Shown here piece by piece: positions 1-58,501 of a DNA stretch of 64,000 nucleotides. The stretch's first letter is position 1. Every line of letters begins with the position of its first letter. The position numbers and the translations under genes are program-made. Source of the DNA: Micropepsaceae bacterium (GTDB lineage Bacteria > Pseudomonadota > Alphaproteobacteria > Micropepsales > Micropepsaceae); NCBI GenBank assembly GCA_965247505.1, contig OZ252020.1, positions 2,539,719-2,603,718 of the forward strand, read 5' to 3'. Below the pieces are notes generated by a model. It ran no database searches. It had not been told where the DNA came from and worked only from the letters and a program-made list of their open reading frames with translations.

Positions 1-172
1 GATAAACATCGGCCGGAAATGAGGCGAGGTACTCTGCTTCCGTCATATTCCACGTGCCTTCGGGCGCCTGCGCGAGGGCAGGTGCAAGCAGATACCCACC
101 TGCAAGGCCAAGCGCCAGAGCAAGCGTAGGGGCAGAGCCAAATGCTCGTGCAAAACCAAACCGTCTCATGTC
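1..172 (-). CDS. Partial (5' end only) secreted protein, probable member of the expanded WYGESxGH paralog family. It starts at the ATG at 170-172 and runs off the window start.
   Basis: The minus-strand ATG at 170-172 is preceded by GGAGG (rc of 176-180). Translation is MRRFGFARAFGSAPTLALALGLAGGYLLAPALAQAPEGTWNMTEAEY, a signal peptide followed by Q-A-P-E-G-T-W. This resembles the mature N-termini of the other family members (PDFSGLW, PNFTGYW, ISGVWW). Confidence 0.4.
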
Positions 173-9386: not shown

Positions 9387-9860
9387 ATGGCAATTGATCT
9401 CAACGTGAATGGGGTTCAGCATTCAGTCGATGTAGCGCCGTATACGCCGCTGCTCTGGGTGATCCGGGATCACTTTAAGCTGAAAGGGACCAAATTCAGC
9501 TGCGGCATCGCCCAATGCGGCGCCTGCACGCTGCATATCGATGGTCAACCAGCGCGCTCCTGCAGCGTTCCGGTCTCGGCCGCGGCAGGCAAGGCCGTGA
9601 CCACGATCGAAGGCGTATCAGCCGATGGTTTGAATGCCGTGCAAGAGGCATGGGTCGAGCTCGACGTCCCGCAATGTGGCTACTGCCAATCGGGTCAAAT
9701 CATGAGCGCGGTCGCATTGCTTCGCAGACACCCAAATCCGAGTGATGCGGATATCGACGCCGGGATGACCAATGCATGCCGCTGCGCAACCTATTACCGC
9801 ATCCGCCAGGCAATCCATTTGGCTGCCTCAAAGATTTCCGCGGAAGGGGGGACGCTGTGA
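9387..9860 (+). CDS. (2Fe-2S)-binding small subunit of a molybdenum hydroxylase (IorA / aldehyde oxidoreductase small-subunit type)
   Basis: Two [2Fe-2S] cysteine clusters, [12 protein letters not shown] and the [11 protein letters not shown] motif. 157 aa. Confidence 0.85.
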
Positions 9861-12261: not shown

Positions 12262-13152
12262 ATGCGCAGACGCTCGATTGCGGCTCTCATGGTTGGAATC
12301 TGTGTATGCACACTCGCCTGGCCGGTTCACGCCCAGGAGCGCGCGCTCCTCGGCGACGCTGCGCTACCCGATTTTTCCGGCCTGTGGGGACATACGCTCC
12401 TTGAAGTCGAACCGCCCTTTTCGGGCGCCGGGCCGGTGACAAATTCGAGCCAGATCCCGGGTCTTAACGCTGGGGATCACACCAATCCGATCCTCAGGCC
12501 CTGGGCGGCGGAGATCGTCAAGCGCAATGCCGAACTCGCGCTGAGCGGCCTGCCCCGTCCAACGCTGCACAATATGTGCGATCTGGAAGGCGTGCCCCTA
12601 ATTGTCACCGTAAAGGAAGTAAAGTTCCTGCAGACTCCCGGGCAAGTCACGATGCTCTATTATTCAAATCACCAAGTGCGTTTCGTCGCCATGAATGTTG
12701 CGCACACAGTGAATCCTGAGCCCACATGGTTCGGAGAGTCCGTCGGCCATTACGAAGGCAATGACACGCTGGTGATCGACACGATCGGCATAAAGAGGAC
12801 AGACGATACCGAGGTCGATTGGTTCGGCACGCCCCACACGGACGCCCTGCATGTCGTCGAGCGCTATCGCTTGGTCGACAGCGAGGAAGTGGTCAGAGCG
12901 CCGGAACCAGACCGGCGGCGCGAAGGCAGGGTCGGCACCTATTACCGCCCGCTACCCGGAGGCAAGACGCTGGGAGTGCAATACAATGTGGAGGACCAGG
13001 GCGCTTTCACGAAGCCGTGGGGGGCAGTCGTGCACAATGAAATAACGCCGGACAGAGACAACTCGCTGGAGCATGTCTGCGCCGAGAATAATCGCTTCTT
13101 CTTCCGCGAGGAATTGTTCCCGATGACGAGTGCCGGCGATCCGGACTTCTGA
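12262..13152 (+). CDS. Secreted protein, member of the WYGESxGHYEGD paralog family. It sits directly downstream of the Mo-oxidoreductase genes.
   Basis: Signal peptide MRRRSIAALMVGICVCTLAWPVHAQ. The family motifs WFGESVGHYEGNDTLVIDTIG and FGTPHTDALHVVERY are present. The gap to the upstream gene is only 42 bp. Confidence 0.6.
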   Translation: MRRRSIAALMVGICVCTLAWPVHAQERALLGDAALPDFSGLWGHTLLEVEPPFSGAGPVTNSSQIPGLNAGDHTNPILRPWAAEIVKRNAELALSGLPRPTLHNMCDLEGVPLIVTVKEVKFLQTPGQVTMLYYSNHQVRFVAMNVAHTVNPEPTWFGESVGHYEGNDTLVIDTIGIKRTDDTEVDWFGTPHTDALHVVERYRLVDSEEVVRAPEPDRRREGRVGTYYRPLPGGKTLGVQYNVEDQGAFTKPWGAVVHNEITPDRDNSLEHVCAENNRFFFREELFPMTSAGDPDF

Positions 13153-13275
13153 GGGACGCACCATGTTATATAGACTAGATGTGCTCCAGGTCGGGGCTGA
13201 CGAGGAGATAGATTTCGACGATTAGCGCAGCGCACCGAAAAACCGAAAATGCAGAAACAACATGCGGGGGTCAGT

Positions 13276-14049
13276 ATGAGCCAAGAGATAGCGGTTGTTG
13301 TCATACACGGCATGGGATCTCAGGAAGCGAATTTCTCGCATCCCCTCCGGGATGAGATAAACAATAGACTCGGCAGCCAGAAGGCGAGTCAGGTTAGTTG
13401 GGGAGAAATTTTTTGTGCTGACATCTTAGCGCCAAGACAAGCAGCGTATTTTCAGCGGGCCAAATCGAGGAATGATCTTGATTTCGTTCGGCTACGAAAA
13501 TTCATGTTGGAGGCATTCGGAGATGCATCTGCCTATAGAAAGACAGGTGATCGCAGCAATACCGCTTACCGGGACATTCACGAGAGAGTGACCGCGAGCA
13601 TAATGGGGCTTGATGATCCGGCTAAGCCTAAGAAGCCTCTAGTCATAATGGCGCATTCTCTCGGCGGACACATCATGTCAAATTACATCTATGACATGCA
13701 GAAGCGACAACCGAGGCAACCAGGAATTAGTGCCTTTCGGTATATGAAGACGGTGGCAGGTCTCATTACATTCGGCTGCAATATCCCGTTTTTCACATTC
13801 GCCTTTGAGAAGGACGATATTCAACCAATCAAATTCCCTGGCTCTGCGTTGTCTCAGGAGAACAAAGCTCGGGCGCGTTGGCTGAATTTTTACGACCCGG
13901 ATGATGTTCTTGGTTATCCGCTGAAGCCGATCAATAAAGCATATCGAGCAGTCGTAAATAGAGATATACCAATCAATGTCGGCGGGATCTTATCTAGCTG
14001 GAATCCACTGTCCCATAACAAATATTGGACAGATAACGACTTTAACTAA
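13276..14049 (+). CDS. Alpha/beta-fold hydrolase (lipase/esterase-like)
   Basis: The IHGMGSQ motif and the GXSXG nucleophile elbow AHSLGGH are present. Local GC is lower than the surroundings. The start could be 13249 or 13276. Confidence 0.5.
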   Translation: MSQEIAVVVIHGMGSQEANFSHPLRDEINNRLGSQKASQVSWGEIFCADILAPRQAAYFQRAKSRNDLDFVRLRKFMLEAFGDASAYRKTGDRSNTAYRDIHERVTASIMGLDDPAKPKKPLVIMAHSLGGHIMSNYIYDMQKRQPRQPGISAFRYMKTVAGLITFGCNIPFFTFAFEKDDIQPIKFPGSALSQENKARARWLNFYDPDDVLGYPLKPINKAYRAVVNRDIPINVGGILSSWNPLSHNKYWTDNDFN

Positions 14050-14104
14050 GCCGGTTGCGAGATTCATAAGCAGCTTATTGTCATAGCCAACGCCCGCTTT
14101 GGGT

Positions 14105-15769
14105 CCAGGCTGTGTGAAAACGCGTTGGCTGGTATGATTCTTCTGTGATTTGGTGGAGGGGTCGATGAAGCGCTTTGTAGTTGGCGATGATCGCAGTTAA
14201 AGCACTCTTTTTCCTGAGCGGCTGGATGAGTATTTGGGCGATGACAACCCGGTTCGGGCGATTGATGTCTTGGTTGATGAGCTTGATCTGGGGGAATTGG
14301 GCTTTAGCGGGGTTGAGCCGGAGGCGACGGGAAGGCCTGCCTACCATCCGGCGACGCTGCTGAAGATCTACGTCTATGGATACCTCAATCGGGTCCAATC
14401 GAGCCGTCGCCTAGAGCGGGAGTGCCAGCGCAATCTCGAGCTCCTATGGCTGACCGGCCGCCTGATGCCGGATTTCAAAACTATCGCCGATTTCCGCAAG
14501 GACAACGGCGGGGCCATCCGCAAGGTCTGCCGTGCGTTCGTAGTGTTGTGCCGTCGCCTTGAGCTGTTCAGTGAGGCGAGCGTTGCGATCGATGGCAGCA
14601 AGTTCAAAGCGGTCAATGCGTGGGATCGGAACTTCACGCAGGCCAAGATGCAGCGGCGGTTGAAGCAGATCGACGAGAGCATTGCGCGCTACCTCTCGCA
14701 GCTTGATAGCGCCGATCGCCAGGGCGAAGCGGTGCCGGAGGCCAAGATCACGCGGCTCAACGAGAAGATTGCGATGCTGCGCCAAGAGATACAGCGCCTG
14801 AATGCACTGAACGTTCAGATGATGCAGAGCGAGGACAAGCAGATCTCCCTGACAGATCCCGATGCGCGCTCGATGGCCACGAGCGGCCGGGGCAGCGGGA
14901 TGGTCGGTTATAATGTGCAAAATTCCGTGGACACGACGCATCATCTGATCGTTTCCCATGAGGTGACCAACAAAGGCTCTGATCGGGGTCAGTTGTCGGG
15001 CGCTGCCGCGCAGGCGCGCACGGCCATTGGTTCTGAAACCATCGAGGCTGTTGCCGATCGCGGCTATTACGCCGGCGAAGAGATCCTGGCCTGCGAGGAG
15101 GCCGGCATAACGGTCTATCTCCCGAAGCCCCTGACCTCAGGGGCCAAAGCCGCAGGGCGTTTCGGCAAGCAGGACTTCGTCTATGTCGCCGAAGACGATG
15201 TCTATCTTTGTCCCAACGGTGAGCAGCTCACCTATCGCTATACCAACGAAGAGGCCGGTAAGATGCTGCGCCGCTATTGGACGGCTGCCTGTCAGGCGTG
15301 TGCGCTGAAAAGCAAGTGCACGACGGCTCGGGAGCGCCGGATCTCACGTTGGGAACACGAAGCCGTCCTTGAGAGAGTTCAGGCGCGGCTCGATCGAAAT
15401 CCGGACAAGATGCGCGTGCGCCGCCAGACCGTGGAGCATCCCTTCGGTACGATAAAGTCGTGGATGGGAGCGACGCACTTCCAGATGAAAACGCTCGAGC
15501 ACGTCGGCACCGAAATGGCGCTGCACGTTCTGGCCTACAACATGAAACGCGTGATGAAGATTCTTGGCGTTGGCGGATTGATAGAGGCGATCCACGCATG
15601 AGACGGGCTCAGGGGGCCCCATAACCCAGCATTCTTCGCATCAAGGAGCCGTTAGGCATCTCCGCGGACCGATTTTACTGAATTGGACGCGTCGGGTCGC
15701 ATAATCCCGCCCCGACCTCCGCTTACGCTACCAACCACCAGACCCGACCACCTTTTCACACAGCCTGGG
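14105..15769 (+). mobile_element. IS1182-family insertion sequence
   Basis: Terminal inverted repeats CCAGGCTGTGTGAAAA (14105-14120) and TTTTCACACAGCCTGG (15754-15769) flank a single transposase gene. The N-terminal signature MKRFVVGDDR.STLFPERLDEYLGDDNPVRAIDVLVDELDL and the C-terminal HPFGTIK motif are those of the IS1182 family. Confidence 0.7.
14165..15601 (+). pseudogene. IS1182-family transposase interrupted by an in-frame TAA at codon 12 (14198-14200)
   Basis: The ATG at 14165 reads MKRFVVGDDRS-TAA-STLFPERLDEYLGDDNPVRAID. The stop replaces the conserved Gln (CAA) of the family N-terminus. The remaining 467 codons are intact (the track ORF restarts at TTG 14234). Confidence 0.65.
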
Positions 15770-15775
15770 TCAGGA

Positions 15776-15838
15776 GCGGACATCCATGTTGCAGTGCAAT
15801 AAGTCTGCTAAGTGCCACAAGCGGACATTGGTGTGAGC
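15776..15838. repeat. 60-bp imperfect inverted repeat, left copy. Its partner is at 17787-17845.
   Basis: The reverse complement of 15776-15838 matches 17787-17845 (ATGTCCGCTT.TGGCACT.AGCAGAC.TATTGCACTGCAACATGGATGTCCGCTC) with about 3 mismatches in 58 bp. It contains the palindrome TTGCACTGCAA and two GGATGTCCGC direct repeats. Confidence 0.7.
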
Positions 15839-15920
15839 AGCCGCCGATTTGGCTCAAGATTTATAAGAGCAATGCTATTTAAAGCGGTGGCCCACAAGTC
15901 AGTTTCGCTCATTTTAGGCG

Positions 15921-16718
15921 CTAAAAATCATGCGCCGAGGCTGTAGGAATATCGAATACTCCGCCTGAAGGGTCCTTGTTGTTCTCTGCACACGCAGACT
16001 CGTGAAATGGCGCCGCGGGCCAATAGGTCGCGCGCGCTGACCAGGGTGTGGTGAACAGTTCAGGGTCTTCAATAGTGAGTTCTATTGCAATCGCGCTGCG
16101 GTCGGGCGCAATCGTATATCGTTCGACAATGTGCAAATTCTCGCTTCGTGGCGTGCCAAAGCGGTCTACGAGTGCGACGTCATTCTGGCCGATCGTATCG
16201 ATAACCAAACTATCAGAGCCTTCGTAATGGCCGGTAGAATGGCCGTACCATGTCCGGGGAGAATTATTGGCATGCCCTTCGTTGAGATAGACATGCCGCA
16301 CTTGATTGTCGCGCTCGTAAATGATCGTCACCTTGTCGGGCGACTGAAGAAATTGCAGTGGATCGTTCATGTTGACCACTAACGGCACGCCGGGCGGCCA
16401 GCACAAGACCCAAGCGGGCTGACTAATGTTTCCCGAACGGCCGATTGCCGCATGCGCCGTAACTGCCGCCAGGGCCTCTGGTCCAAGTATGCGGTTGTCC
16501 AAATCCGCGATCCAGAAGGGGCCCGAATCCGCCGCGCGCATCATCGGCCCCGGCCCGCTTTCGGGAGCTTGGAACGATCGCCCTTCGGCGCTATCTGAAC
16601 GCGTCCAATAGCCGGTGAAATTCGGGATTTCAGTTTCTTGTGCGGCGATACTCGCCGGAGAAATCAAGACGAACAGTCCGGACAGTATTAGGAGATGGCG
16701 GCAAATCGATCTGCGCAT
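15921..16718 (-). CDS. Secreted protein, member of the WYGESxGHYEGD paralog family
   Basis: Signal peptide MRRSICRHLLILSGLFVLISPASIAAQ. Family motifs WYGHSTGHYEGSDSLVIDTIG and FGTPRSENLHIVERY are present. Confidence 0.6.
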   Translation of the reverse strand: MRRSICRHLLILSGLFVLISPASIAAQETEIPNFTGYWTRSDSAEGRSFQAPESGPGPMMRAADSGPFWIADLDNRILGPEALAAVTAHAAIGRSGNISQPAWVLCWPPGVPLVVNMNDPLQFLQSPDKVTIIYERDNQVRHVYLNEGHANNSPRTWYGHSTGHYEGSDSLVIDTIGQNDVALVDRFGTPRSENLHIVERYTIAPDRSAIAIELTIEDPELFTTPWSARATYWPAAPFHESACAENNKDPSGGVFDIPTASAHDF

Positions 16719-16846
16719 TGCGATGCCCTCGGAGCCGCCCAGTTAAGCAAAACCATATTATCGCGGCTCAGCGTAGCGCAGTTTGGCCTGACGGCTCCTT
16801 TAGTACCAGCGGTTTAGGGTGCGACATGTCCGCTTTACCTTTGCGG
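16671..16846. repeat. 176-bp direct repeat, copy 1. Copy 2 is at 17575-17750 and is nearly identical.
   Basis: Two mismatches over 176 bp. Copy 1 covers the start codon, the signal-peptide-coding 5' end and the upstream region of the family gene 15921-16718. Confidence 0.85.
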
Positions 16847-17160
16847 TCTCAATGGATCAACGCAACACTAGCGGCAGGCCTCTCTGCCGGGGGTTAGAAC
16901 CTCAAAGTCTTTCAGGACCGTTCTTGAGCCGTCCGGCCACTTTTCTCGGATGCGAGAGCGAATAGACCGAAAACACAGCACTCTTCAGAAAGCGTTATCA
17001 GAGCAGGCGTTTGACGTTCCCATTGGAGCTGGGCTGGCAGTGATTCCACGGCCCAGGCTTCTCGTGCAAGGTGAACCACGGACTATGCCTTTGGCTCGTA
17101 AGCACAAACTCAGACTCCTCCGTTTGCGCCAAGGTGTTGCGTCGACCGGTTGAGGCGGCA
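16842..17160. repeat. Roughly 320-bp inverted repeat, copy A. Copy B is at 22579-22888 in reverse complement.
   Basis: Identical 67-aa and 63-aa spurious ORFs appear in both copies (16950-17153 + equals 22576-22779 -). Nucleotide identity is near 100 percent across the core. The two copies flank a 5.4-kb gene block. Confidence 0.85.
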
Positions 17161-17221
17161 CTTTGAGAGCGGACATCGGTGCTGCACCAATTAGGACACT
17201 TAGCTAGAGAAATTAGGACGC

Positions 17222-17536
17222 TCACTCAAGATTCCGCTGGCCTTTTCGCAGGCCACAATTGAAACATTGTTTGTTGAAAGCGGTAACCCCTCCTAGGAAC
17301 CCCCATTTAAAAGAAAAGGGTTCGCCACATTTGGGGCATAGGAATGCAGAGTGCCACAGGAAGGGAACAAAAAGTGCGACAACGTCCCATGGAGCGAAAT
17401 AGGCCCAATCAATATTTTGAAAAAAGAATGGGCCAGCGAACCACGTGGTCACAAAAGAGACGAAAGTGCCCAACAGGAGGGCGCGCCTAAAATCTAGGTC
17501 GCGCCACGCTCGCTGGTATAGGACTTCTTTCGTCAA
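17222..17536 (-). CDS. Small membrane protein with a C-terminal zinc-ribbon (CPKCG...CFNCG)
   Basis: 104 aa with two hydrophobic helices followed by two CxxC pairs. The segment is AT-rich. Confidence 0.4.
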   Translation of the reverse strand: MTKEVLYQRAWRDLDFRRALLLGTFVSFVTTWFAGPFFFQNIDWAYFAPWDVVALFVPFLWHSAFLCPKCGEPFSFKWGFLGGVTAFNKQCFNCGLRKGQRNLE

Positions 17537-17574
17537 AACTGCCCGCCCTCAATTACCCTGAACCGAACAGTCCG

Positions 17575-17750
17575 GACAGTATTAGGAGATGGCGGCAAAT
17601 CGATCTGCGCATTGCGATACCCTCGGAGCCGCCCAGTTAAGCAAAACCATATTATCGCGGCTCAGCGTAGCGCAGTTTGGCCTGACGGCTCCTTTAGTAC
17701 CAGCGGTCTAGGGTGCGACATGTCCGCTTTACCTTTGCGACCTCAGGTGA
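17575..17750. repeat. 176-bp direct repeat, copy 2, carrying a truncated remnant of the family gene 5' end
   Basis: On the minus strand it encodes MRRSICRHLLILSGLFGSG-stop, i.e. only the signal peptide of the 15921-16718 paralog. Confidence 0.8.
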
Positions 17751-17786
17751 TCGATGCACCGCAGCATGGATGTCCGCTTATGGCAC

Positions 17787-17845
17787 TAAGCAGACATATT
17801 GCACTGCAACATGGATGTCTGCTCTCGGGGGCAAAGTGGACATTC
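17787..17845. repeat. 60-bp imperfect inverted repeat, right copy. Its partner is at 15776-15838.
   Basis: See the left copy. Together they bracket the 15839-17786 segment. Confidence 0.7.
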
Positions 17846-17981
17846 GGCTCGGTCCTAGAAAAGAGGCCGGTAAAGCGTTTTCGGCATGAGGCGATGTTCA
17901 TCGACTCTGGGGCGTGATGAATTAGCAGTGAATTCGCAATGACACTCGGCGGTTCTGGCGCCTGATGGAGCCAGGTGCGAT

Positions 17982-18911
17982 TTACGGGACTGCACCCGTG
18001 AGCTCTTGATAAATCCTGCGCACCATGACTTCCCTTTGCGGGAGGGTGCCGCCTCCAAACAAATCATATCCAGTCATGCCTTCATATTGTTGAAGGAGAA
18101 TACGAGCCGCGACTTCGTCTTCTGTCGCTCCTTGCGCAATCTCTCTCTCAACGGCATCGCGCGCTTCGACCATAATTTGGCGGGATCGAACCAGCGCCTG
18201 CCGGGTTACTTCAGGCTCGTTCACCGTCCATGCTCCGTTTCCGGGAACGATAATGTCGGCCTCGAGGTTCAAGATGAAATCGATCGCGTTTATCCAGTTG
18301 AGAGTTCCTGAGTCCATGAACGGAAACCGCTCGTAGAAAAACACCTCACTCGTATAGACGATCCGGTCTTGAGGAACGAAAACGATGCTGTCGCCCCGCG
18401 TGTGCGCGGGGCCAACATGGATAATCTGAATTTCCTTGTCACCGACGTGAAGCGTCATGCGCTCAGCGTAGGTCAGATCGGGAAGTATGGCCTCTTGTTG
18501 CGGTGTCGGAACATCATTGCCTCCTAGCAGATCGGCCTTGTAGTCCTCCTGGCCAATATTAATGGCATCTTGATAGGCGACGTTACCGCGCGAATAATTG
18601 CCGTGGTTTGATGAGGAAATCAGATAGCGAACAGGCTGCCCAATAATATCGGATATCAGTTGCCGTTCATGCATCGCCATGGCTTCGTTGCTTAAAGCAT
18701 CAACCACCACGACTCCTTCGTTTGTGACAATTACGCCGCTGATACGGGGATCGGAAAGATACGCATAGTGACCGGGGATAATCTGTTCGAGGGTTCCGGA
18801 TTGTGCGTCGTTGGAGGCTTGCGCGAGTGCGCGATTGAGCTGCGCATCCGTTACGAAGATGCCGAGGCTCAAGGGGAGTAAAAAAACGAGAAACATCATC
18901 GATTTGGGCAC
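17982..18911 (-). CDS. Secreted MBL-fold metallo-hydrolase (metallo-beta-lactamase superfamily)
   Basis: Signal peptide MPKSMMFLVFLLPLSLGIFVTDAQ. The motifs HVGPAHTRGD and SSNHGNY (His/Asp metal ligands) are present. 309 aa. Confidence 0.7.
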   Translation of the reverse strand: MPKSMMFLVFLLPLSLGIFVTDAQLNRALAQASNDAQSGTLEQIIPGHYAYLSDPRISGVIVTNEGVVVVDALSNEAMAMHERQLISDIIGQPVRYLISSSNHGNYSRGNVAYQDAINIGQEDYKADLLGGNDVPTPQQEAILPDLTYAERMTLHVGDKEIQIIHVGPAHTRGDSIVFVPQDRIVYTSEVFFYERFPFMDSGTLNWINAIDFILNLEADIIVPGNGAWTVNEPEVTRQALVRSRQIMVEARDAVEREIAQGATEDEVAARILLQQYEGMTGYDLFGGGTLPQREVMVRRIYQELTGAVP

Positions 18912-19052
18912 GACTATGTCCTCCTGTCGAAAAACGCACTAGCCAAACAAGATCGCATTTCCAGGAAAGTCGGTCTATCCGACCTTCCCACTGCTTAGCC
19001 GCTCTAGCTAGTGAGATCGATCTCGCGAATGGTCTTGTCCGCACGCAGAACA

Positions 19053-20153
19053 TTATTCCCAGTGCGGTGTTCCACCCGCCTCGAGATAATCTTGGAACCG
19101 CCTGTCGCTCTCGTCGTAAAACGTGCCCCAGGGGCGCGGATCAGTGGCGTCCCAGTCGAGCTGCTCGCCCGGAACGCGATGGTTGAGAAAACCGTTCTCG
19201 TCCAAATAGACTGTTGGTGACGGGCCGTTGGTGTCGGTGCACGTCACATAGAGCGGCCGAAATTCGGGACGCGTCTCCGTCTCGAGCCTGAAATTGTGCT
19301 TGGCGTGGTAGGGACGCACAAAGACCTCCGGGTCGTAGAGCGTGACTTCGCCCTCGATAATATCGCCCACGCGCCGGTAGCGCTCCACCGTCTCCAGATT
19401 GTCGGTGTGTTCCGAGGGCCCACCGAACCATCCTTTCACCTGATTGGTGTGAATGATGAGGGCATCGCCGTCCCAGAAGCCTACCGATTCGCCGTGCCAT
19501 TTGGGATATTGCAACTCCTGCGAACTGTGTCCACTGCCGTCGGTGTATATCCAGCGGATGTAGTTCACGCCGACGCTTGAGGCCAAGGTCCAAACCTTTT
19601 CCGGCGTTACGATGAATTCATCGACATTCGTTAGCGCAGACATGAACCCGCCGGGCAGGCAAAAGGCGCCCGCCCACCAGGGACGCGCTTGGGCTTCGGC
19701 CCGCACGTCCTGAATGAAATATTCCTGATGTTGCGGCGTCAGTAATGCGACGGTCGAACTTACGGGGTTCTGTCCGCCACCGAACGCGCCCCGCTCGTGC
19801 GCCCAAACGCCGCTCCAATCTGGGATCGTATCCTTGGTATGTTGTGTGCCGCCGTCTGCCTCCTCGCGCCAAGCCTGGTAGTGCTCCCAGGCCGTGGCAA
19901 AAGAATAGGGGCTCGTATGTTCGCGCGAGCCAGGCACGCCCGTGCCCGTCGTGCCGTAGGATGCGGGATCTTCGCCCATCCCACGCATCTCGCTGTTGGT
20001 ATTGTGCCGATAATAGGCCGGATCGGTCCAGTGTTCGCGGTCTGCACGAAAATCCTCGGTCGTGAAGATGTCTTGCGCGGTTGCGCTATAGGCAAAACCC
20101 GCGAACAGCGTAACCAGCGAAACCGTCGCCGACAGAGAAGCCCGCATGATCAT
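19053..20153 (-). CDS. Secreted protein, long (about 370 aa) subtype of the paralog family
   Basis: The start at MIMRASLSATVSLVTLFAGFAYSATAQ (ATG 20153) follows a GGAGG RBS. The motifs KWHGESVGFWDGDALIIHTNQ and EHTDNLETVERYRRV are present. It is paralogous to 57341-58501 (EEHYNAWLEAADGGTEH versus WEHYQAWREEADGGTQH). Confidence 0.6.
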   Translation of the reverse strand: MIMRASLSATVSLVTLFAGFAYSATAQDIFTTEDFRADREHWTDPAYYRHNTNSEMRGMGEDPASYGTTGTGVPGSREHTSPYSFATAWEHYQAWREEADGGTQHTKDTIPDWSGVWAHERGAFGGGQNPVSSTVALLTPQHQEYFIQDVRAEAQARPWWAGAFCLPGGFMSALTNVDEFIVTPEKVWTLASSVGVNYIRWIYTDGSGHSSQELQYPKWHGESVGFWDGDALIIHTNQVKGWFGGPSEHTDNLETVERYRRVGDIIEGEVTLYDPEVFVRPYHAKHNFRLETETRPEFRPLYVTCTDTNGPSPTVYLDENGFLNHRVPGEQLDWDATDPRPWGTFYDESDRRFQDYLEAGGTPHWE

Positions 20154-20219
20154 TCCTCCTGTCTGAATCCGGACATATGGCTTTTGCCCCGGAGGGCACC
20201 TGTTATTCGTAGATGCCAA

Positions 20220-20588
20220 TTATTCGTGGATGTAAGTATTCCCATCGGCGCTGGTGATCGTCGTGAAGCTTCCGCCCGGGCGGCCGTCTCTTAAGGGGTG
20301 CATGTTCACACTAACTGCGTCACCATCCGCGAATGTGTTTAAGTTCATTCCCCCGCGGAGCATGGTCGGAATGTTCACCATCTCGATCCAATATTGCACG
20401 GTCTCGCCGTTTTCCTCTTCGACATCGACATAGAGGAAGGCGTGCGGATTGCTGAACACATATCCGGACACGGTCCCGTTGATGGTCACATCACTAGTGT
20501 TGTCGAACATCGCGTGGCTGTGGTGCGCTAATGCTGCCGGCGCGACCAGCAAAGGCCAGGTGAGTATTACGAAATAGATGCCTCTCAT
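20220..20588 (-). CDS. Small secreted protein whose predicted mature N-terminus is HHSHAMFD (unknown family). It lies immediately upstream of a paralog-family gene.
   Basis: Signal peptide MRGIYFVILTWPLLVAPAALA, then HHSHAMFDNTSDVTINGTVSGYVFSNPHAFLYVDV... Total length is 122 aa. It is paralogous to 25838-26219. Confidence 0.55.
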   Translation of the reverse strand: MRGIYFVILTWPLLVAPAALAHHSHAMFDNTSDVTINGTVSGYVFSNPHAFLYVDVEEENGETVQYWIEMVNIPTMLRGGMNLNTFADGDAVSVNMHPLRDGRPGGSFTTITSADGNTYIHE

Positions 20589-20712
20589 AGCTCGGTCCTC
20601 TGGGTGCTAATGCGATCTTTGGCGGTGGGGAGCAAGACTACTGCACTATGGGCACCTCATCCAGGGATTTTAGATGTCCGGGAACCGGAAACGGAGATCC
20701 TCAGAGCGATAT

Positions 20713-22437
20713 CTATCGCACTTGCACTTTCACGATTTGCGAGGGCGGACGATAGGAGGGGATCCAAAGCGTCGGCCGTTCGGTGCCGGGCTCCACCGTT
20801 AAATCGCGCATCACATAGGGGCGCGGCATAAAATATTCGACCGACTCGCCGGTTTCCATATCGATGCGGAAGAGGCGATTGGCGTTGAAGTCCGTCGTCC
20901 AAACCCATCCGTTTTCATCATCCACCGAAAGCGTATAGGGCGCGGCATAGGGCGGGTCATAGGCCTCGGTTCCGGGAAACATAGGATATTCTTTCATCTC
21001 ACCGTTGTCGGGATTGAAGCGCATAATCCGTCCCGCATAAAAAAGCGGCGTCCAGAAATTTCCCTCGGCGTCCATCTCGCCACGCCGCGGTCCCGATTCC
21101 GGCGTTGAAATTTCATAGAGTTTGTATTCGTCGTTCGTGGGATCGAAGACGCCGATTTGGCCGCCCCGCCATATATTGATGATGGTTCGGGCTTTCGAAT
21201 CCGTCTCCATGTCATAGACGCCGTCATTATAGGGGATGGGGTGTGTGATCACCTCGCCATTGTTCAGATTGAGCTCGAAGAGCGGGCCGCCTTCATTGGT
21301 GTGCCAAACATGATCATTGGAATCGAGCCCGAACATGCTGGCGCCCGACGGCCATTCGTCGAATATTTCGGTAACGGGATTGTAGCGCACCGTTGCCATG
21401 TCCATACCGATAATGAGATTGCCTTGGCTGTCGGCCAATAGATCGTGGGACCCGCCACCGGGATTGCCGGCGCGAATTTCACCCGGCGCCGCGTCCGTCA
21501 CCCGACCGCCGCCCGGCGGAATGGCATAGGCAAGTTCGACCACCTCGCCGGTGTTCTTGTCCAACCGTCCCAAAGCATTGGAAAAATGATCCGTGTACCA
21601 AGCATATTGCTCGTCGATGACAACATCATGCGGCCAAACATGGCGTGCGTCGCCGCGCAGCATGAAAAGCTCGCGCTCGCCGCCACGCGGCAGATCATAT
21701 TCGGTCAGGACAAGGCGCGTGGCCTCCTCGGAGGTCGGGCGCGGGCGCAATTCAAAGGGGATGACATCGGACGATCCCGGCCCGCGAATAGAGGTGATGT
21801 ATTCCGCGAGCGGCTCGATGAAGCGCATCTGGCTAAAATTCAAGGATTTAGGGAAGTTCTGTGACGTTCTTGCCCGCCCGCCCATGAGGTGAATAATTTC
21901 TGTCCAGCCCGCCTGATCATATTCGAAGCGCAATGCGCGCTGAATCGAGTGGCAGGTGCTGTATTGCGAAAACAACACTTTCTCACGGTCCGTCCCGGGA
22001 AGCGCCGCCACAATCTCCGATGCGGTCGCGTCTTCGATCGAGGGCTCGCGCGCGATCAGCGCGAAATCCGCATGCGCGGAAGACCCCTCGCTCAGCGCGA
22101 CGGCGTCTTGGTGAACATGCCCATAATCGGGAAGCTCTATGGAAAGCGTATGCGCGCCCGCGGACAAATCGGACCAAGCGGGGAAGGAATAGATTCCATC
22201 GCCATTGCTATAGACAACGACGCTGAAACTCTTGCCGTCTCCGCGAGCACGTATGGGAATGCCGGCGAGCGCGTTGCCGTCTTGCGATGTAATGCGGCCA
22301 TAAAGAAGCGCGTCTTGTTCGACGCCTGCGAATTCGTCACTCGGCGAGCAATTCGAAACAATTGCGAGAAGTGCAAAAGCAGCTATAGCCCGCAAGGCAC
22401 CGCGGCTCCTAAATATCGACAATGGCATGATTTCCAT
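20713..22437 (-). CDS. Secreted protein with an N-terminal carboxypeptidase-regulatory-like beta-sandwich and a C-terminal beta-propeller (Vgb-lyase/NHL-like)
   Basis: 574 aa with a signal peptide. The segment LYGRITSQDGNALAGIPIRARGDGKSFSVVVYSNGDGIYSF resembles the CarboxypepD_reg fold. The downstream repeated blades are Gly/Asp/Trp-rich. Confidence 0.5.
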   Translation of the reverse strand: MEIMPLSIFRSRGALRAIAAFALLAIVSNCSPSDEFAGVEQDALLYGRITSQDGNALAGIPIRARGDGKSFSVVVYSNGDGIYSFPAWSDLSAGAHTLSIELPDYGHVHQDAVALSEGSSAHADFALIAREPSIEDATASEIVAALPGTDREKVLFSQYSTCHSIQRALRFEYDQAGWTEIIHLMGGRARTSQNFPKSLNFSQMRFIEPLAEYITSIRGPGSSDVIPFELRPRPTSEEATRLVLTEYDLPRGGERELFMLRGDARHVWPHDVVIDEQYAWYTDHFSNALGRLDKNTGEVVELAYAIPPGGGRVTDAAPGEIRAGNPGGGSHDLLADSQGNLIIGMDMATVRYNPVTEIFDEWPSGASMFGLDSNDHVWHTNEGGPLFELNLNNGEVITHPIPYNDGVYDMETDSKARTIINIWRGGQIGVFDPTNDEYKLYEISTPESGPRRGEMDAEGNFWTPLFYAGRIMRFNPDNGEMKEYPMFPGTEAYDPPYAAPYTLSVDDENGWVWTTDFNANRLFRIDMETGESVEYFMPRPYVMRDLTVEPGTERPTLWIPSYRPPSQIVKVQVR

Positions 22438-22578
22438 AAAGCTAAACTTTCATGAGCGTTCCGGTACCGGGCCGTATTCTCGACATCCATAGTCCGAGCA
22501 CTGAATGCTACGCTTGGGGAGGGACCTGCTTCAAGCAGCGCTGCGGTGGCCCAATGTCCGCTCTTGGCTGCCGCCTCA

Positions 22579-22888
22579 ACCGGTCGACGCAACACCTTGG
22601 CGCAAACGGAGGAGTCTGAGTTTGTGCTTACGAGCCAAAGGCATAGTCCGTGGTTCACCTTGCACGAGAAGCCTGGGCCGTGGAATCACTGCCAGCCCAG
22701 CTCCAATGGGAACGTCAAACGCCTGCTCTGATAACGCTTTCTGAAGAGTGCTGTGTTTTCGATCTATTCGCTCTCGCATCCGAGAAAAGTGGCCGGACGG
22801 CTCAAGAACGGTCCTGAAAGACTTTGAGGTTCTAACCCCCGGCAGAGAGGCCTGCCGCTAGTGTTGCGTTGATGCATTGAGACCGCAG
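22579..22888. repeat. Roughly 320-bp inverted repeat, copy B (partner 16842-17160)
   Basis: Reverse-complement identity to copy A. Confidence 0.85.
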
Positions 22889-23056
22889 CACTCAGCGAAC
22901 ATCCCTAGTCATCTGGGTAACGTCTGCGTCCGGCAGGCAGTGCGGATATGGGGACTAAAATCCGGGGAATTTATTGGTTTTCGATGTGGGTTGCGCGCTC
23001 CGCCTATGCGCCCCTATAGCTCACTGTGTTACTGATAGGCTTAATTTGGAGCCGCC

Positions 23057-24154
23057 ATGAATCGATTTATTGCCCTCGCTATTGCTGTTTTTGGCGCTTG
23101 CGCTAGTGCTTCAATATTGAGCGCACAAACTGCCGATTACCAGCGCCTGCCAAGAGAGGTGCTCGATGTCATGCCGCCGACGGAGCGGGTAAGGGGTATC
23201 CCTGGGCAGATGACTATGCGTCCGCTTGCCTGTCAGAATATGCCAATCGCAGAATCGCGCAGGCGCATTGTGGACATAGCGGTCCAGGAGTGGGGTTTTT
23301 TCGGGTTTCCGATAACCGACCTGACGGATTTCGACGACGAATTGCCTTCTCAAAGAACCGCGGCGCTTTCCAATCAGGCAAACATCTACGGATTTTCTTT
23401 TAATCCATTGCGCAGGGGCGGGCGCTTCCCGGCACTTCCCCAAGAAGAGACTTCGCGTGTTGCAAGCTCGGTTGCAGGCTATTGGGCTGCCACGCCGCGC
23501 GGGGCCGCGATGATTGAACGGCAGAACCAAGAGTGGAACGGGCCTCGGGGTTTGGCAGGGCGATGGGCCGACCCCTGGTCTGCCGCATTCGTGTCCTGGG
23601 TGATGTGCGAAGGCGGTCTGGGGGATAGCGGCCAATTTCAGCGCGCAATTGCGCATTGGACCTATATTGATCAGGCGATTAACGCGCGCGACGGACGTGC
23701 ACCGCAAAGCGGTTTTGTTGCTTATGATTTGGGAGAGCAGCCCATCGAGCCGGGAGATCTTCTATGCAGTGGCCGTCGGCCCGCTTACCGCAACATTGCG
23801 CAGCGCCGTCGGCAGCTTGGAGTAGGCACGAGGACACATTGCGATATTGTCGTCAAGCTTGACGAGTCCCAAGAGCGGATATTTACGGTCGGCGGAAATG
23901 TGCGCCGCGCGGTAACTCTAAAGCTCTTCTCAGCCGAACGGGATGCAAGCGGAAAATTACGTCCCGCCGAACCTCCGGAGAATGGCGATATGCGTCCGCT
24001 TTTCGCGCACCTAAAGCTTCGCGCCGATCCCATTGGGCCGGGCGCGCTTGATAGCAGTCCAACCATCAGCGCCCTGGACTGCGAATTTAAGTTTGAAGAA
24101 CGCCATCCCGCGTATAATCTTATGCCCGTAAGCTTGGCCGAAGGTGAGTGCTAA
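23057..24154 (+). CDS. Hypothetical secreted protein
   Basis: Signal peptide MNRFIALAIAVFGACASASILSAQ. 365 aa with a conserved-looking HCDIVVKLD segment. No confident family assignment. Confidence 0.45.
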   Translation: MNRFIALAIAVFGACASASILSAQTADYQRLPREVLDVMPPTERVRGIPGQMTMRPLACQNMPIAESRRRIVDIAVQEWGFFGFPITDLTDFDDELPSQRTAALSNQANIYGFSFNPLRRGGRFPALPQEETSRVASSVAGYWAATPRGAAMIERQNQEWNGPRGLAGRWADPWSAAFVSWVMCEGGLGDSGQFQRAIAHWTYIDQAINARDGRAPQSGFVAYDLGEQPIEPGDLLCSGRRPAYRNIAQRRRQLGVGTRTHCDIVVKLDESQERIFTVGGNVRRAVTLKLFSAERDASGKLRPAEPPENGDMRPLFAHLKLRADPIGPGALDSSPTISALDCEFKFEERHPAYNLMPVSLAEGEC

Positions 24155-24208
24155 GCCTGCGTGCGCCAGGGTGAGCGAACATCTATAGATTTCGGAGTTT
24201 ACCGGGCC

Positions 24209-25060
24209 TCAGAAATCCAGCCTGGTTGCGGTCGGCATTGGATATTCGCCGCCCGTCAAGATATCGAGATTGCTCTCGGCACAATAAAATTCTTCGAACA
24301 TGGGCGCCCCCATTATCCGGTGCAGAATACGCGAGCCAGTCCAAACTTCCGTGAACGCCTCCGGATCGTCGACACTATATTGAACCTCAATTGTCTCACC
24401 ATCTTCTAGTAGAGCGTAGCGTTCGACGACATGCAGCTTTTCGCTGTGCGGCGTCTGAAAATCATCCACCACCGTTCTGTCGTTCATGCCGATGGTGTCC
24501 ACTACCAGTGTGTTGCCTTCGAAGTGACCGACCGATTCGCCGTACCAGCTGGGCGTAATGTTTTCGGAATGAGATACATCCAGATAGATGTATCGCATCT
24601 CCGGACCCTCCATATGATGGATTGTTACCTGGTTCTCTGTCTGCAGAAACTCGATGGGCTGACCGCCAAGCTCAACAATTGCGGGAACACCGTTGGGCCA
24701 GCAAAGTGATCGGGCCGGCAGAATGACTTCCCCCGCGATTCGTCTGTCGACTACGTCCTTCAATGCTTCCGCGGTCCTTGGCTGGAGAAGCGGATCCGTC
24801 ACATCCGCTATTGCCGGGACCGGCGCCTGCCGGACGCCGCCCACACCGCGGCTGCCCCTTTGCTCGTAATCCGGGTGCCGGCGAACACCAGACCGACCGG
24901 GAGGCTCGGCATCCTCGGCGCGCCAAATACCGGAGAAATCAGGGCCAAGAATCGTCGAAACATTGTTGGGTTGGGCTTGGGCCTCGGCGAAAACGACTGC
25001 GCCGATAGCGACGATAATCGCGGTACTTATTAGCGAGTAAAACCTTGTCACTTCCGGCAC
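24209..25060 (-). CDS. Secreted protein, member of the WYGESxGHYEGD paralog family
   Basis: Signal peptide, then LCWPNGVP, WYGESVGHFEGNTLVVDTIG and FQTPHSEKLHVVERY. Confidence 0.6.
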   Translation of the reverse strand: MPEVTRFYSLISTAIIVAIGAVVFAEAQAQPNNVSTILGPDFSGIWRAEDAEPPGRSGVRRHPDYEQRGSRGVGGVRQAPVPAIADVTDPLLQPRTAEALKDVVDRRIAGEVILPARSLCWPNGVPAIVELGGQPIEFLQTENQVTIHHMEGPEMRYIYLDVSHSENITPSWYGESVGHFEGNTLVVDTIGMNDRTVVDDFQTPHSEKLHVVERYALLEDGETIEVQYSVDDPEAFTEVWTGSRILHRIMGAPMFEEFYCAESNLDILTGGEYPMPTATRLDF

Positions 25061-25075
25061 TCCTTCCCGCGAGGC

Positions 25076-25810
25076 TCAATTCGGCGCGTTCACGCCTGGA
25101 ATATGTGAAATATCACGATGTTCGTCTCCGCAAACATATTCCTGAAGACGAATATCGGGATGCAGATCGTAGACAAAACGTGCGCTCCAGGCCTCAGTAA
25201 AGACTATGGGATCGTCTACCGTCACCATTATTTCAAGGCTATCGCTGCCCAGCTTGCGGACACGTTCCACCGTGCGCATCTCGGCGCTATGCGGCACACC
25301 TGTCGCGTCAATGAATGTCTTATCCTTGTAGCCGGCGGTTTCGATCACAAGGGTATCGCCTTCCCACTGGCCAACGGAGTAACCCGAATAGAATGGAATA
25401 TTTTCGAGGAGTTCCTCCGACGGCATGGGAATGTCGAGCATCACGCGCCGCATCACTCGGTTAAGTTCATAGGCCATACTGACCTGTCCGGGGGTCTGAA
25501 TGATCTGGAACGGGTAGGGATTGCCCAAAATACGCGGCACGCCGTCGGGCAGACAGAGTCTGCGCGCCTCGTCGCTCAACGGGTCTTCCTGAAGGGCAGA
25601 CATATTGCTCTCATATTGCGCCCGTCCAATCTCGGTGAACGGAAGCGCATTCTCACCGACCAGACGGATCGCCGGGCTATAGCTCTGTGTCCACCACACG
25701 CCTGAAATGCTCTGTGCTTCAGCCGGCTCGGCGCTGTCGGCAGATCCGGTCAGCAAGGACACGACCATCATGGCTGACGCCAATGATATTGTGAGCGTTT
25801 TTTCGGTCAT
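25076..25810 (-). CDS. Secreted protein, member of the WYGESxGHYEGD paralog family (divergent copy)
   Basis: Signal peptide MTEKTLTISLASAMMVVSLLTGSADSA, then LCLPDGVP, YSGYSVGQWEGDTLVIETAG and GVPHSAEMRTVERV. Confidence 0.6.
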   Translation of the reverse strand: MTEKTLTISLASAMMVVSLLTGSADSAEPAEAQSISGVWWTQSYSPAIRLVGENALPFTEIGRAQYESNMSALQEDPLSDEARRLCLPDGVPRILGNPYPFQIIQTPGQVSMAYELNRVMRRVMLDIPMPSEELLENIPFYSGYSVGQWEGDTLVIETAGYKDKTFIDATGVPHSAEMRTVERVRKLGSDSLEIMVTVDDPIVFTEAWSARFVYDLHPDIRLQEYVCGDEHRDISHIPGVNAPN

Positions 25811-25837: not shown

Positions 25838-26219
25838 CTAATCGTACTCTTCCGCCAACGCTCTTCCGTCCGGAAGCGTAATCGAGTCAAGCGTCCCGGC
25901 ATAATCGCCATCATGCGTTGGAAAAATGGATACCGAAATCTCATCGCCTGCGACAACGGTATCGCTTCTCCAACCCCTGCGAAACAGGCGGGACGGATTA
26001 CTCATTTCGATCACATATTCAACCGACTCACCATTTTCATTGGCAGCCATTACGCGCAGCCAGCTATGGGGGTTAGTCCACTCGAAACTCGATACGGTGC
26101 CCTCTACCGCTACCGTCCTGGTGAAGTCAAACATCGCATGCGAATGATGTCCAAATGCGGGCACCGCCAAGAATACAAATCCTATGCTAGCTAGGCTTAA
26201 GGTCTTCGTGTTCATCATT
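25838..26219 (-). CDS. Small secreted protein whose predicted mature N-terminus is HHSHAMFD. It is paralogous to 20220-20588 and lies immediately upstream of two family genes.
   Basis: The ATGATG at 26214-26219 follows a GGGAGG RBS. The signal peptide MMNTKTLSLASIGFVFLAVPAFG is followed by HHSHAMFDFTRTVAVEGTVSSFEWTNPHSW... Confidence 0.55.
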
Positions 26220-36997: not shown

Positions 36998-37134
36998 GCC
37001 AAAGCGATAGCGCATCCGATAAGGCGTCTAGGGAAACCAGGCGCCTTATCTTTTGGTTGGACTCTCTCGGAGGCTTTTTGCGCCCGTGAAACCGCGCGCC
37101 TCGTCTGCTAGCGTATCAAGGCAATAAGAACCTA

Positions 37135-57340: not shown

Positions 57341-58501
57341 ATGAGAATTATATGGATGAGTCTTGTAGCGGCGCTTGGGCTTGCAGCGAGTTTTGGCATG
57401 GTGTCCGTCTACGGCCAGCAGCAAGATCTGGACTTCGATCCGGCAGACCCCTTTGCCAGCACCAGCTCCGCCGAAGAGTGGAGGGGGCTGTTCGCGACCG
57501 GCGTTCCCGCAATAGATCCGAATGACCGCTTTCGAAACTTGACTGGGCGCGAATGGACCGAAACCGGCGAATACCAAACCGCGGAGCAGCTGGGATTGTC
57601 CAGTGAAGCTTTTTTGGCCACCTTTGACGGCTCGGGCGGCACCGGCGTGCAAATCGGCAGCCCCTATCCCTATGACAACGCCGAAGAGCATTACAATGCG
57701 TGGCTTGAAGCAGCCGATGGCGGCACCGAACATGACCGCATGAGCCTTCCCGACTGGAGCGGCAGCTGGCAAGGCACCGCTCAAGGCGTGCTTCGCCAAA
57801 CCGCACTGGTGCGCGACGTATGGGACGCGATTACCGAGGAATATCGCCCCGGCTTTCAGCAACTCTTAACGGCAGAGCTGGAATCACGGCATTGGTGGCC
57901 GGCCGATACCTGTCTTCCCGAGGGGTTCGGGCGGTTCTATGCGCTTAACGGCGCCGTGTTTCATTTTATGATGGATCCCACGATGGTCCTGATCCACAAG
58001 GACCGTCCCCAAAGCGAAACGCGATATATTTTTACCGACGGACGCGGCTTCTTGCCGCCCGACTATCGTTTCCCCGCATGGATTGGACACTCGCAAGCCT
58101 TCTGGGAGGGCGATGAACTTGTCATTTGGACAAACGACATCATTCCCTGGGTGCTCACCCATGGCCTTGGAGAATATAGCGACGAGCTACAGGCCGTCGA
58201 ACGGGTGAAGAAAATCGGCGATTCCATCTTGCTCGATATCACGCTTTACGATCCTGAAGCCTTCGCTTTTCCCTGGCACGATGTCGTGGAGTTTCGACGG
58301 CTTGAGGATTGGACCACCGCGCCGCAGACATTTAATGAATGCACCTCAACCAATAATGTTTATCACGACGAAAATGGGCTTCTGAGGGAATACACCCCGG
58401 GCGATCCAAACTATCGCGACGCGACGGATCCACGGCCATGGGCAAGTGTCTTCGAGCGTGGAGAAAGAGCAAACGCTGAAGGTGGTGCCGCCGGCGAATA
58501 A
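57341..58501 (+). CDS. Secreted protein, long subtype of the paralog family
   Basis: Signal peptide MRIIWMSLVAALGLAASFGMVSVYGQQ. The motifs AWIGHSQAFWEGDELVIWTND and EYSDELQAVERVKKI are present. It is paralogous to 19053-20153. Confidence 0.6.
   Translation: MRIIWMSLVAALGLAASFGMVSVYGQQQDLDFDPADPFASTSSAEEWRGLFATGVPAIDPNDRFRNLTGREWTETGEYQTAEQLGLSSEAFLATFDGSGGTGVQIGSPYPYDNAEEHYNAWLEAADGGTEHDRMSLPDWSGSWQGTAQGVLRQTALVRDVWDAITEEYRPGFQQLLTAELESRHWWPADTCLPEGFGRFYALNGAVFHFMMDPTMVLIHKDRPQSETRYIFTDGRGFLPPDYRFPAWIGHSQAFWEGDELVIWTNDIIPWVLTHGLGEYSDELQAVERVKKIGDSILLDITLYDPEAFAFPWHDVVEFRRLEDWTTAPQTFNECTSTNNVYHDENGLLREYTPGDPNYRDATDPRPWASVFERGERANAEGGAAGE

Follow-up and report, generated by a model that had tools for sequence, protein, structure and literature searches.

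What are the secreted paralogs that recur along a 64,000-nucleotide stretch of the genome of a Micropepsaceae bacterium (GCA_965247505.1, contig OZ252020.1, positions 2,539,719 to 2,603,718; the whole stretch is called the window below), and what might they do in the periplasm? We found that the window holds seven full-length members (p2 to p8) of a family of exported proteins that are predicted to fold as fatty-acid-binding-protein (FABP)-like barrels and are often encoded beside a small protein of the DUF6152 family. The data fit a soluble periplasmic barrel that accepts a small, partly hydrophobic molecule, and both carrying and transforming that molecule would fit. Our preferred explanation, at a probability of roughly 40%, is a module that binds anionic hydrophobic or aromatic compounds in the periplasm or hands them on. 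An earlier reading made from the nucleotide sequence alone (the sequence-only reading) had pointed out the paralogs; it overlooked the DUF6152 partner, the FABP-like fold, and the very large and old expansion of the family.

A six-frame scan of the window with a profile built from the seven copies returned the seven paralogs with E-values from 1e-79 to 6e-122, and beyond them the best E-value was about 1. The short subtype (244-296 aa) comprises p2 (12262..13152, plus strand, 296 aa; family profile E 9e-111), p3 (15921..16718, minus strand, 265 aa; E 2.3e-111), p5 (24209..25060, minus strand, 283 aa from a GTG start), p6 (25076..25810, minus strand, 244 aa, a short "leader" subtype; E 7.4e-84) and p8 (59761..60642, plus strand, 293 aa; E 4.3e-114). 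The long subtype comprises p4 (19053..20153, minus strand, 366 aa; E 1.4e-79) and p7 (57341..58501, plus strand, 386 aa; E 6.9e-82). Both the structure model and the residue numbers used below refer to p5, which is 100% identical to the 280-aa version in database entry P0001. Alignment A1, which contains 84 short-subtype sequences, gave a profile that detected p2, p3 and p8 at 1.5e-87, 1.1e-88 and 4e-104; because this profile of short members alone still detected both long copies (p4 at 4.5e-21 and p7 at 4.6e-16), the two subtypes are homologous. Pairwise identity of the paralogs within the window is 23-38%, with p7 and p4 sharing 38% over 292 aa. All seven begin with a hydrophobic segment of the Sec-signal-peptide type, as judged by rule of thumb rather than by SignalP. 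The profile matches, the hydrophobic N-termini and the detection across subtypes bear out the claim of one secreted family with short and long forms.

The motifs listed by the sequence-only reading align in register across the paralogs. One of them, DDPxxFTxPW, is present as described but lies in the last third of the protein and not at its C-terminus; the C-terminus of the short p5-like subtype is a conserved, nearly invariant ...DF, which is absent from p6 and the long subtype. Of the eight copies that had been counted, the seven above stood, and the one placed at <1-172 did not. The plus-strand frames there are unrelated, and the minus strand encodes the 56-residue N-terminus of a signal-peptide protein that runs past the window edge (1..169); neither the family HMM nor BLASTP or phmmer gave this fragment a significant family match. 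A "truncated remnant" reported at 17575-17750 proved to be a direct duplicate of the 5' region of p3 (17564..17739, minus strand; 176 bp, 98.9% identity by blastn, E 1.6e-89). Its source, 16670-16845, covers the p3 upstream region and about the first 17 codons, the copy lies 0.9 kb upstream, and the 98.9% identity excludes an independently decayed paralog. The two repeat copies (16670-17739, minus strand) flank an insert of about 718 bp that encodes a small Cys-rich, zinc-ribbon-like peptide (CPKCG...CFNCG), and this insert may be a small mobile or recombined segment.

The family could not be placed among characterised proteins, in agreement with the sequence-only reading. A Pfam-A hmmscan of the seven paralogs at E<=1 gave no family except one chance match to DUF2800, and at E<=0.1 none of the 84 members of A1 matched any Pfam-A family; the seven paralogs had no match in NCBIfam, and neither phmmer nor the family profile found a match among PDB sequences. 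Relatives themselves are abundant. A word-indexed search returned more than 2,000, every named one a "hypothetical protein", and the sole Pfam domain among them was DUF6152, on fused forms. A profile search of 1.84 billion cluster representatives returned 16,063 at E<=1e-3, each standing for a cluster at 50% identity, and 9,321 at E<=1e-10.

What kind of protein this family forms was approached through structure prediction. The AlphaFold2 model computed from A1, with p5 as reference, had a mean predicted local distance difference test score (pLDDT) of 85.3 and a predicted template modelling score (pTM) of 0.78, and its layout is a strand at residues 44-50, then a segment of about 85 residues with three helices, then nine strands. 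Essentially all top Foldseek matches were CRABP-II or FABP structures, aligned over about 215 query columns with target-normalised TM-scores of 0.52-0.59, in the order strand A, a long insertion, and strands B-J. The protein is thus predicted to be a 10-stranded antiparallel FABP-like barrel of the calycin superfamily, whose portal, between A and B, is much expanded; a 10-stranded antiparallel barrel with a helix-turn-helix portal at this place is the structural hallmark of the intracellular lipid-binding proteins (iLBPs), and the predicted model has it. Since sequence identity to the structural matches is 9-17%, the resemblance to FABPs is one of fold only. Most of the closest neighbours in structure are proteins that only bind a ligand.

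Conservation, given here in p5 numbering, was evaluated across 206 members, among them long-subtype, p6-like and Novosphingobium proteins. C120, R156, G174, E213 and R214 are present in 100% of members, L185, D232 and C260 in 99%, and P126, G178, D199 and P204 in 97-98% (D199 in 97%), while E181, D188 and E257 are acidic (Asp or Glu) in about 95% or more. The histidines are less constant: H205 occurs in 90% (otherwise Tyr or Gln), H179 in 86% (otherwise Arg or Lys) and H164 in 86% (otherwise Met or Leu), and the motif His positions are Phe, Gln, Glu or Arg in the long subtype and p6. The sequence-only reading had suggested from conserved His and Glu residues that the proteins bind a metal or a substrate; the metal part of this suggestion is weakened by the pattern, in which E213 is universal and no His is. 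A universal His metal site in the barrel is excluded by the variability of these residues, and the replacement of H179 by Arg or Lys indicates anion binding rather than a metal site. The two invariant cysteines lie in the portal (C120) and in the C-terminal tail (C260), and may form a disulfide that ties the one to the other. The string G174-E-S176-V-G178 resembles the G-x-S-x-G motif of serine hydrolases; this identity was rejected, as the string falls in a predicted strand (175-181) of an all-beta barrel with no nucleophile elbow. Ser176 is Ala in 7 of the 206 members, and no hydrolase family in Pfam was matched by the window paralogs.

The most consistent companion of the barrel genes is DUF6152, of which the window has two genes. 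One (20220..20588, minus strand, 122 aa; Pfam PF19649 at 91.6 bits against a cut-off of 27, an exact match to a gene of the related contig L001) lies 66 bp upstream of p4, and the predicted mature N-terminus of its product is HHSHAMFD. The other (25838..26215, minus strand, 125 aa; PF19649 precomputed on an identical gene) comes first in the run DUF6152-p6-p5, with 27 bp from DUF6152 to p6 and 15 bp from p6 to p5. It was the query of the DUF6152 alignment (A3) and of the DUF6152 fold model, and all 71 of its homologs carry a precomputed PF19649 assignment. A third candidate, encoding HHSDTAVFD at 5356-5436 on the plus strand (E 4.7), overlaps a Rieske oxygenase gene on the opposite strand and was treated as a chance match. 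Among 67 DUF6152 sequences, H23, H24, D30, N48-P49-H50, E70, G81 and D91 are invariant, and all 67 have an A-x-[AG] signal-peptidase site followed by H-H-S, so that by the -3/-1 rule the mature protein is predicted to start with His-His-Ser. The predicted fold is an OB fold, in which N48-H50 would lie in loop 1-2, E70 at the end of strand 3 and D91 at the start of strand 4; these elements form the usual binding face of OB folds.

Both natural fusions and gene neighbourhood connect the two families. DUF6152 is the N-terminal part of four DUF6152-barrel fusions (P0050, P0023, P0033 and P0035), of which P0050 is encoded in the same 4.7-Mb genome as the window; because the fusions form one closely related group, 71-82% identical to one another, they count as a single event. 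In a survey of metagenomic loci that started from DUF6152, without reference to the barrel family, a barrel-family gene lay within 400 bp in 36 of 80 loci, and in 13 of the 23 with at least 900 bp on both sides. DUF6152 lies 28-70 bp upstream of the long subtype in all three other genomes compared (L167, L168 and L169), including an acidobacterial metagenome-assembled genome (MAG), and nothing else is conserved around the pair in these three. Novosphingobium sp. PP1Y (megaplasmid Mpl, region 657-674 kb) and KACC 22771 likewise have the pair, on plasmids whose open reading frames (ORFs) were called within this analysis. About 40% of the well-covered DUF6152 loci lack the barrel family and have a different partner instead; the link is strong but not obligate. 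DUF6152 has a second recurrent neighbour, a family of secreted proteins about 190-340 aa long whose N-terminal pattern is AAW[RK]xY..GF (L094, L106, L107, L110, L117, L121, L137, L141, and L167 at 1024-2043) and which is unrelated to the barrel family, showing no similarity to it.

Searching species-representative genomes with the strict pattern [WY]YGESVGH gave 427 confirmed stretches. Of these, the 80 best all came from MAGs, often with several loci per genome, and nearly all were labelled Alphaproteobacteria (Xanthobacteraceae, Micropepsaceae, Hyphomicrobiales), with a few labelled "uncultured Bordetella". The family is found mainly in soil Alphaproteobacteria. Distant members are on megaplasmids of cultured Novosphingobium, Sphingobium and Croceibacterium, and relatives of the long copy p4 in MAGs labelled Acidobacteria and Gammaproteobacteria are 57-62% identical to it. 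Each of the five short paralogs has its nearest relative outside the window, at 47-90% identity, and p4 has matches elsewhere at 57-93%; since these paralogs are closer to outside relatives than to others in the window, the expansion is old and not a recent local duplication. Internal duplication occurs besides gene arrays, as some family proteins of 450-530 aa (P0121, P0134, P0149 and others) have two matched stretches, that is, two tandem copies of the domain.

The sequence-only reading had called the density of paralogs the most unusual feature of the window. It is indeed far above chance, but it is not extreme for the family, since other genomes have tandem arrays of up to 15-16 copies in about 15 kb (L017, L029 and L035). 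A p6-like member opens the arrays in L017 and L029, and the L035 contig begins inside its array; p6-like or similarly low-scoring short members adjoin DUF6152 in four further loci (L008, L018, L028 and L046). A divergent TonB-dependent receptor of 1,120 aa flanks the arrays of L017 and L029, a tannase/feruloyl esterase gene lies within those of L029 and L035, and in Novosphingobium genes for TonB-dependent receptors stand immediately before or beside those of the barrel family. The three arrays are collinear, and positional orthologs are 80-90% identical as against a within-array median of 47%; individual copies have therefore been kept as distinct genes. The immediate flanks of family loci are diverse, with 128 Pfam families among 137 flanking proteins (most often PrpD with 5, then TctC and SGL with 3 each). 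A few neighbours recur, though infrequently: TctC receptors, whose cluster is the most common (13 loci), TonB-dependent receptors (9 loci) and metallo-beta-lactamase (MBL)-fold proteins (two clusters, in 7 and 6 loci); apart from DUF6152, the 137 flanking genes include no consistent enzyme or transporter partner.

Considering these results, we propose a plausible scheme in which a Sec-exported, soluble barrel protein would take a small, partly hydrophobic and probably anionic organic molecule into its barrel. Candidate cargoes are aromatic or phenolic acids, lactones and esters, which could enter through a TonB-dependent receptor or be released by neighbouring periplasmic esterases, lactonases or hydroxylases. 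The anionic group would be held by R156 and R214 together with His, Arg or Lys at position 179, specificity would depend on variable residues, and either an enzyme of the periplasm or a transporter in the inner membrane would then receive the cargo. Many barrels would work as a pair with DUF6152, the latter probably either binding a metal or docking on the former, and the diverged paralogs would form a battery of non-redundant specificities. We infer ligand binding, the ligand class, the hand-over and the role of DUF6152 from the fold model, the conserved residues and the gene neighbourhoods. FABP and CRABP hold the carboxylate of their ligands by buried Arg residues. We put the carrier or receptor function first because its nearest relatives in structure are for the most part pure binders, because the change of H179 to Arg or Lys and the two invariant Arg recall this carboxylate anchoring, and because expanded solute-receptor families have a similarly scattered and diverse setting of catabolic and uptake genes. 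Diverse catabolic and transport flanks are the pattern expected of an accessory binding protein, and the collinear orthologs and the low identity within the window count in favour of non-redundant copies. Several points weigh against this scheme. The invariant Arg, Glu and Asp residues may form salt bridges with a structural role; the six conserved acidic positions (E181, D188, D199, E213, D232 and E257) and the strictly invariant E213-R214 pair fit a catalytic or cation site no less well than a generic pocket for binding; and the long subtype, 57-62% identical across phyla, is tighter than expected for a carrier of variable specificity. In addition, no inner-membrane transporter was consistently adjacent among the 137 flanks, the window has no TonB-dependent receptor, and a literature search found no paper on the barrel family or on DUF6152.

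A catalytic role is the main rival and nearly as good an explanation. The barrels would then be cofactor-free periplasmic enzymes using acid-base catalysis, as calycin barrels can be, with E213-R214, R156, D199 and D232 as catalytic residues, and the paralogs would be isoenzymes for mixed substrates such as breakdown products of tannin, lignin or humic matter. Decarboxylation, isomerisation, hydration, and lactone or ether chemistry would be candidate reactions, as in other calycin-fold enzymes. Strictly invariant charged residues across 206 members that are only about 30-45% identical would suit an active site, and so would the retention of positional orthologs in arrays, the long subtype at about 60% identity across phyla, and the presence inside two arrays of a tannase/feruloyl esterase, an enzyme that releases such acids. 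The lack of sequence similarity to any enzyme family in Pfam, NCBIfam or PDB, the preponderance of pure binding proteins among the structural neighbours, and the placing of the G174-S176-G178 string in a beta strand, with Ser176 replaced by Ala in seven members, all speak for binding instead, and the flanking genes are too diverse to name a reaction. Metal chemistry shared by the two proteins is clearly less probable. DUF6152 and the barrel might form a two-component periplasmic metal system that would either traffic the metal or use it in redox or hydrolytic catalysis, and in which DUF6152 would bind Cu(II), Zn, Ni or Fe through its N-terminal His-His, the His of NPH, and Asp/Glu, and deliver it to the barrel or act with it. 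The invariant residues of DUF6152 (H23, H24, D30, N48-P49-H50, E70 and D91 in the 67 sequences) are suggestive of this, as are the position of N48-H50, E70 and D91 on the usual binding face of the predicted OB fold, the N-terminal place of DUF6152 in the fusions, which leaves the His terminus free, and the six conserved acidic positions and mostly conserved His of the barrel. However, none of the His residues of the barrel is universal, and most are missing from p6 and the long subtype; diverged tandem arrays of 15-16 copies are hard to explain by metal handling; the fusions represent one event; about 40% of well-covered DUF6152 loci have another partner; and no metal transporters or metal regulators were consistently nearby in the 137 flanks. 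Slightly less probable again is a bolder version, a two-subunit periplasmic metalloenzyme or redox module in which Cu or another metal would sit in a histidine-brace-like site on the OB fold and the barrel would bring a polyphenolic or aromatic compound to it as substrate, the arrays being a battery of specificities against tannin, lignin and humic material taken up via TonB-dependent receptors.

Two further explanations appear very improbable. The nearly invariant D-F end of the short p5-like subtype could be an insertion signal, the proteins then being small integral outer-membrane beta-barrels; yet p6 and the long subtype lack this end, the strands of the predicted barrel are short (5-9 residues), conserved charges occur on both faces (ESVGHFE and HVVERY), and about 90 residues are helical or loop insertion. 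Alternatively, conflict between bacteria might have diversified the arrays into islands of proteins that act as decoys for secreted toxins or give immunity to them; long arrays of diverged paralogs with signal peptides do resemble orphan immunity-gene arrays. Against this, the surrounding genes serve catabolism and uptake, and toxin, secretion-system or Rhs genes did not turn up in the flanks. The 80-90% conservation of positional orthologs does not suggest rapid turnover, and the invariant charged residues are likewise out of keeping with such a role.

Within the window, periplasmic redox and hydrolytic enzymes adjoin the paralogs; the sequence-only reading had named oxygenases, a Mo-hydroxylase and cytochromes as neighbours. 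The run iorA-iorB(Tat)-p2-alpha/beta hydrolase begins with an iorA-like 2Fe-2S subunit gene (9387-9860, plus strand) followed by an IorB-like Mo-cofactor subunit gene (9776-12220, plus strand; Pfam MoCoBD_1 and MoCoBD_2; Tat motif SRRDML), and p2 lies 41 bp downstream of this Tat-signal molybdenum hydroxylase. At another locus (L040) IorB and a barrel-family gene follow each other on the same strand, 14 bp apart; in related three-subunit dehydrogenases, the position that p2 takes after iorA-iorB is often held by a cytochrome c subunit. The run propeller-DUF6152-p4-MBL has a beta-propeller protein with CarboxypepD_reg and Vgb-lyase/SGL-like Pfam domains upstream of DUF6152-p4 (20713..22437, minus strand) and a secreted MBL-fold protein downstream of p4 (17982..18911, minus strand; Pfam Lactamase_B, E 5e-7). 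Similar SGL-like propeller genes are within 300 bp of barrel-family genes in L020 and L033, and MBL-fold genes adjoin them in 4-5 other loci. In the run p7-NHL propeller-p8, a secreted NHL-repeat beta-propeller with a signal peptide (58634..59722, plus strand; Pfam NHL, E 2.8e-23) separates the two paralogs, p8 starts 38 bp after it, and an MFS transporter and a Tat-signal dienelactone hydrolase (DLH) are found beside the run. The IorB, MBL, propeller, NHL and DLH neighbours of the window each recur in one to five other loci.

The region has been rearranged by insertion sequences (ISs). An IS with DUF772 and DDE_Tnp_1 domains (14234-15601, plus strand) lies between the alpha/beta hydrolase gene and p3, and this neighbourhood is a rearrangement hot spot, because related contigs hold different IS elements there. 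Divergent from DUF6152-p6-p5 is a sensor histidine kinase gene split by an IS (26677-29658, plus strand), with HisKA/PAS at 26677-27618, a Mutator-family transposase at 27829-28989 and HATPase_c at 29089-29658; the related contigs L001 and L002 have one kinase gene with HisKA/PAS and HATPase_c domains at the same position. Housekeeping genes and DUF3035 point to a chromosomal, alphaproteobacterial origin of the DNA. Elsewhere, two ORFs of about 445 aa overlap almost fully on opposite strands (37132-38463, minus; 37135-38490, plus), and the minus-strand one has no Pfam match. At the window edges are a multihaem c-type cytochrome with paired CXXCH and MtrC-like domains (62645-63970, minus strand) and a LigXa-like Rieske oxygenase with a MarR regulator (4597-5910, minus strand), and both fit an aromatic or lignin-derived catabolic setting.

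Comparison with known systems places the family apart from each of them. The iLBPs (FABP, CRABP, CRBP and bile-acid-binding proteins; PF00061) have a similar barrel fold, and no sequence similarity to them was detected. In contrast to these cytosolic proteins of about 130 aa, whose cavity takes up a fatty acid, retinoid or bile acid, the window family is secreted and two to three times larger (244-386 aa), adds a portal insertion of about 85 residues, N- and C-terminal extensions and an invariant Cys pair, and is bacterial, multi-copy, arranged in tandem arrays and associated with DUF6152. The 19-kDa catalytic subunit of Oplophorus luciferase and the dinoflagellate luciferase domain share 11-17% identity with it, which supports no claim of catalytic residues in common, and are eukaryotic enzymes with a different biological role. 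Bacterial FABP-like or nitrobindin-like barrels (M. tuberculosis Rv0813 and Rv2717c; THAP4) have about 160-190 aa, and the window family is larger and has no Pfam match. Nitrobindins need a proximal His for haem; this conserved haem-b ligand of nitrobindin and THAP4 has no counterpart in the window family, which has no invariant His.

The Bug/TctC receptors offer a functional analogy, as they too are many paralogous periplasmic receptors among diverse catabolic genes. In Cycloclasticus, PahP is a periplasmic protein that receives a hydrophobic ligand from a TonB-dependent receptor in the PahS/PahP system (PMC10570129). PahP was rejected as a relative, being an ordinary two-lobed binding protein, and serves as an analogy only (PMC10570129); both TctC and PahP are two-lobed substrate-binding proteins, and the window family has a different fold. 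For DUF6152, the predicted OB fold would be common to CusF and CusF-like SilB, but CusF has a His/Met/Met(/Trp) site for Cu(I)/Ag(I), and its Met/Trp ligands are absent from the DUF6152 invariants. In histidine-brace copper proteins such as CopC and the lytic polysaccharide monooxygenases (LPMOs), cleavage of the signal peptide exposes an N-terminal His that acts with a second His; in DUF6152 the His-His start is predicted by the -3/-1 rule, and H50 is invariant. Histidine-brace proteins have immunoglobulin-like or cupredoxin-like folds, from which the predicted OB fold differs. The fold class of the barrel is itself already known; the sequence family, the enlarged portal with its Cys pair, the DUF6152 partner and fusions, and the arrays have no description in Pfam, NCBIfam (searched with the window copies), the PDB sequences or the literature searched.

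The barrel family accounts for a noticeable part of the periplasmic genes of soil Alphaproteobacteria, reaching 16 copies in tandem next to a TonB-dependent receptor, and its long subtype keeps an identity of about 60% over three phyla. If its members are carriers, they would be an exported bacterial counterpart of the fatty-acid- and retinoid-binding proteins of animals, and would supply a missing step between outer-membrane uptake and the catabolism of hydrophobic or aromatic compounds. If they are enzymes, or a metal-dependent pair with DUF6152, they would represent a new catalytic system for the turnover of polyphenols and humic matter. DUF6152 gains its first functional partner, and Novosphingobium sp. 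PP1Y is a cultured organism that has the DUF6152-barrel pair.

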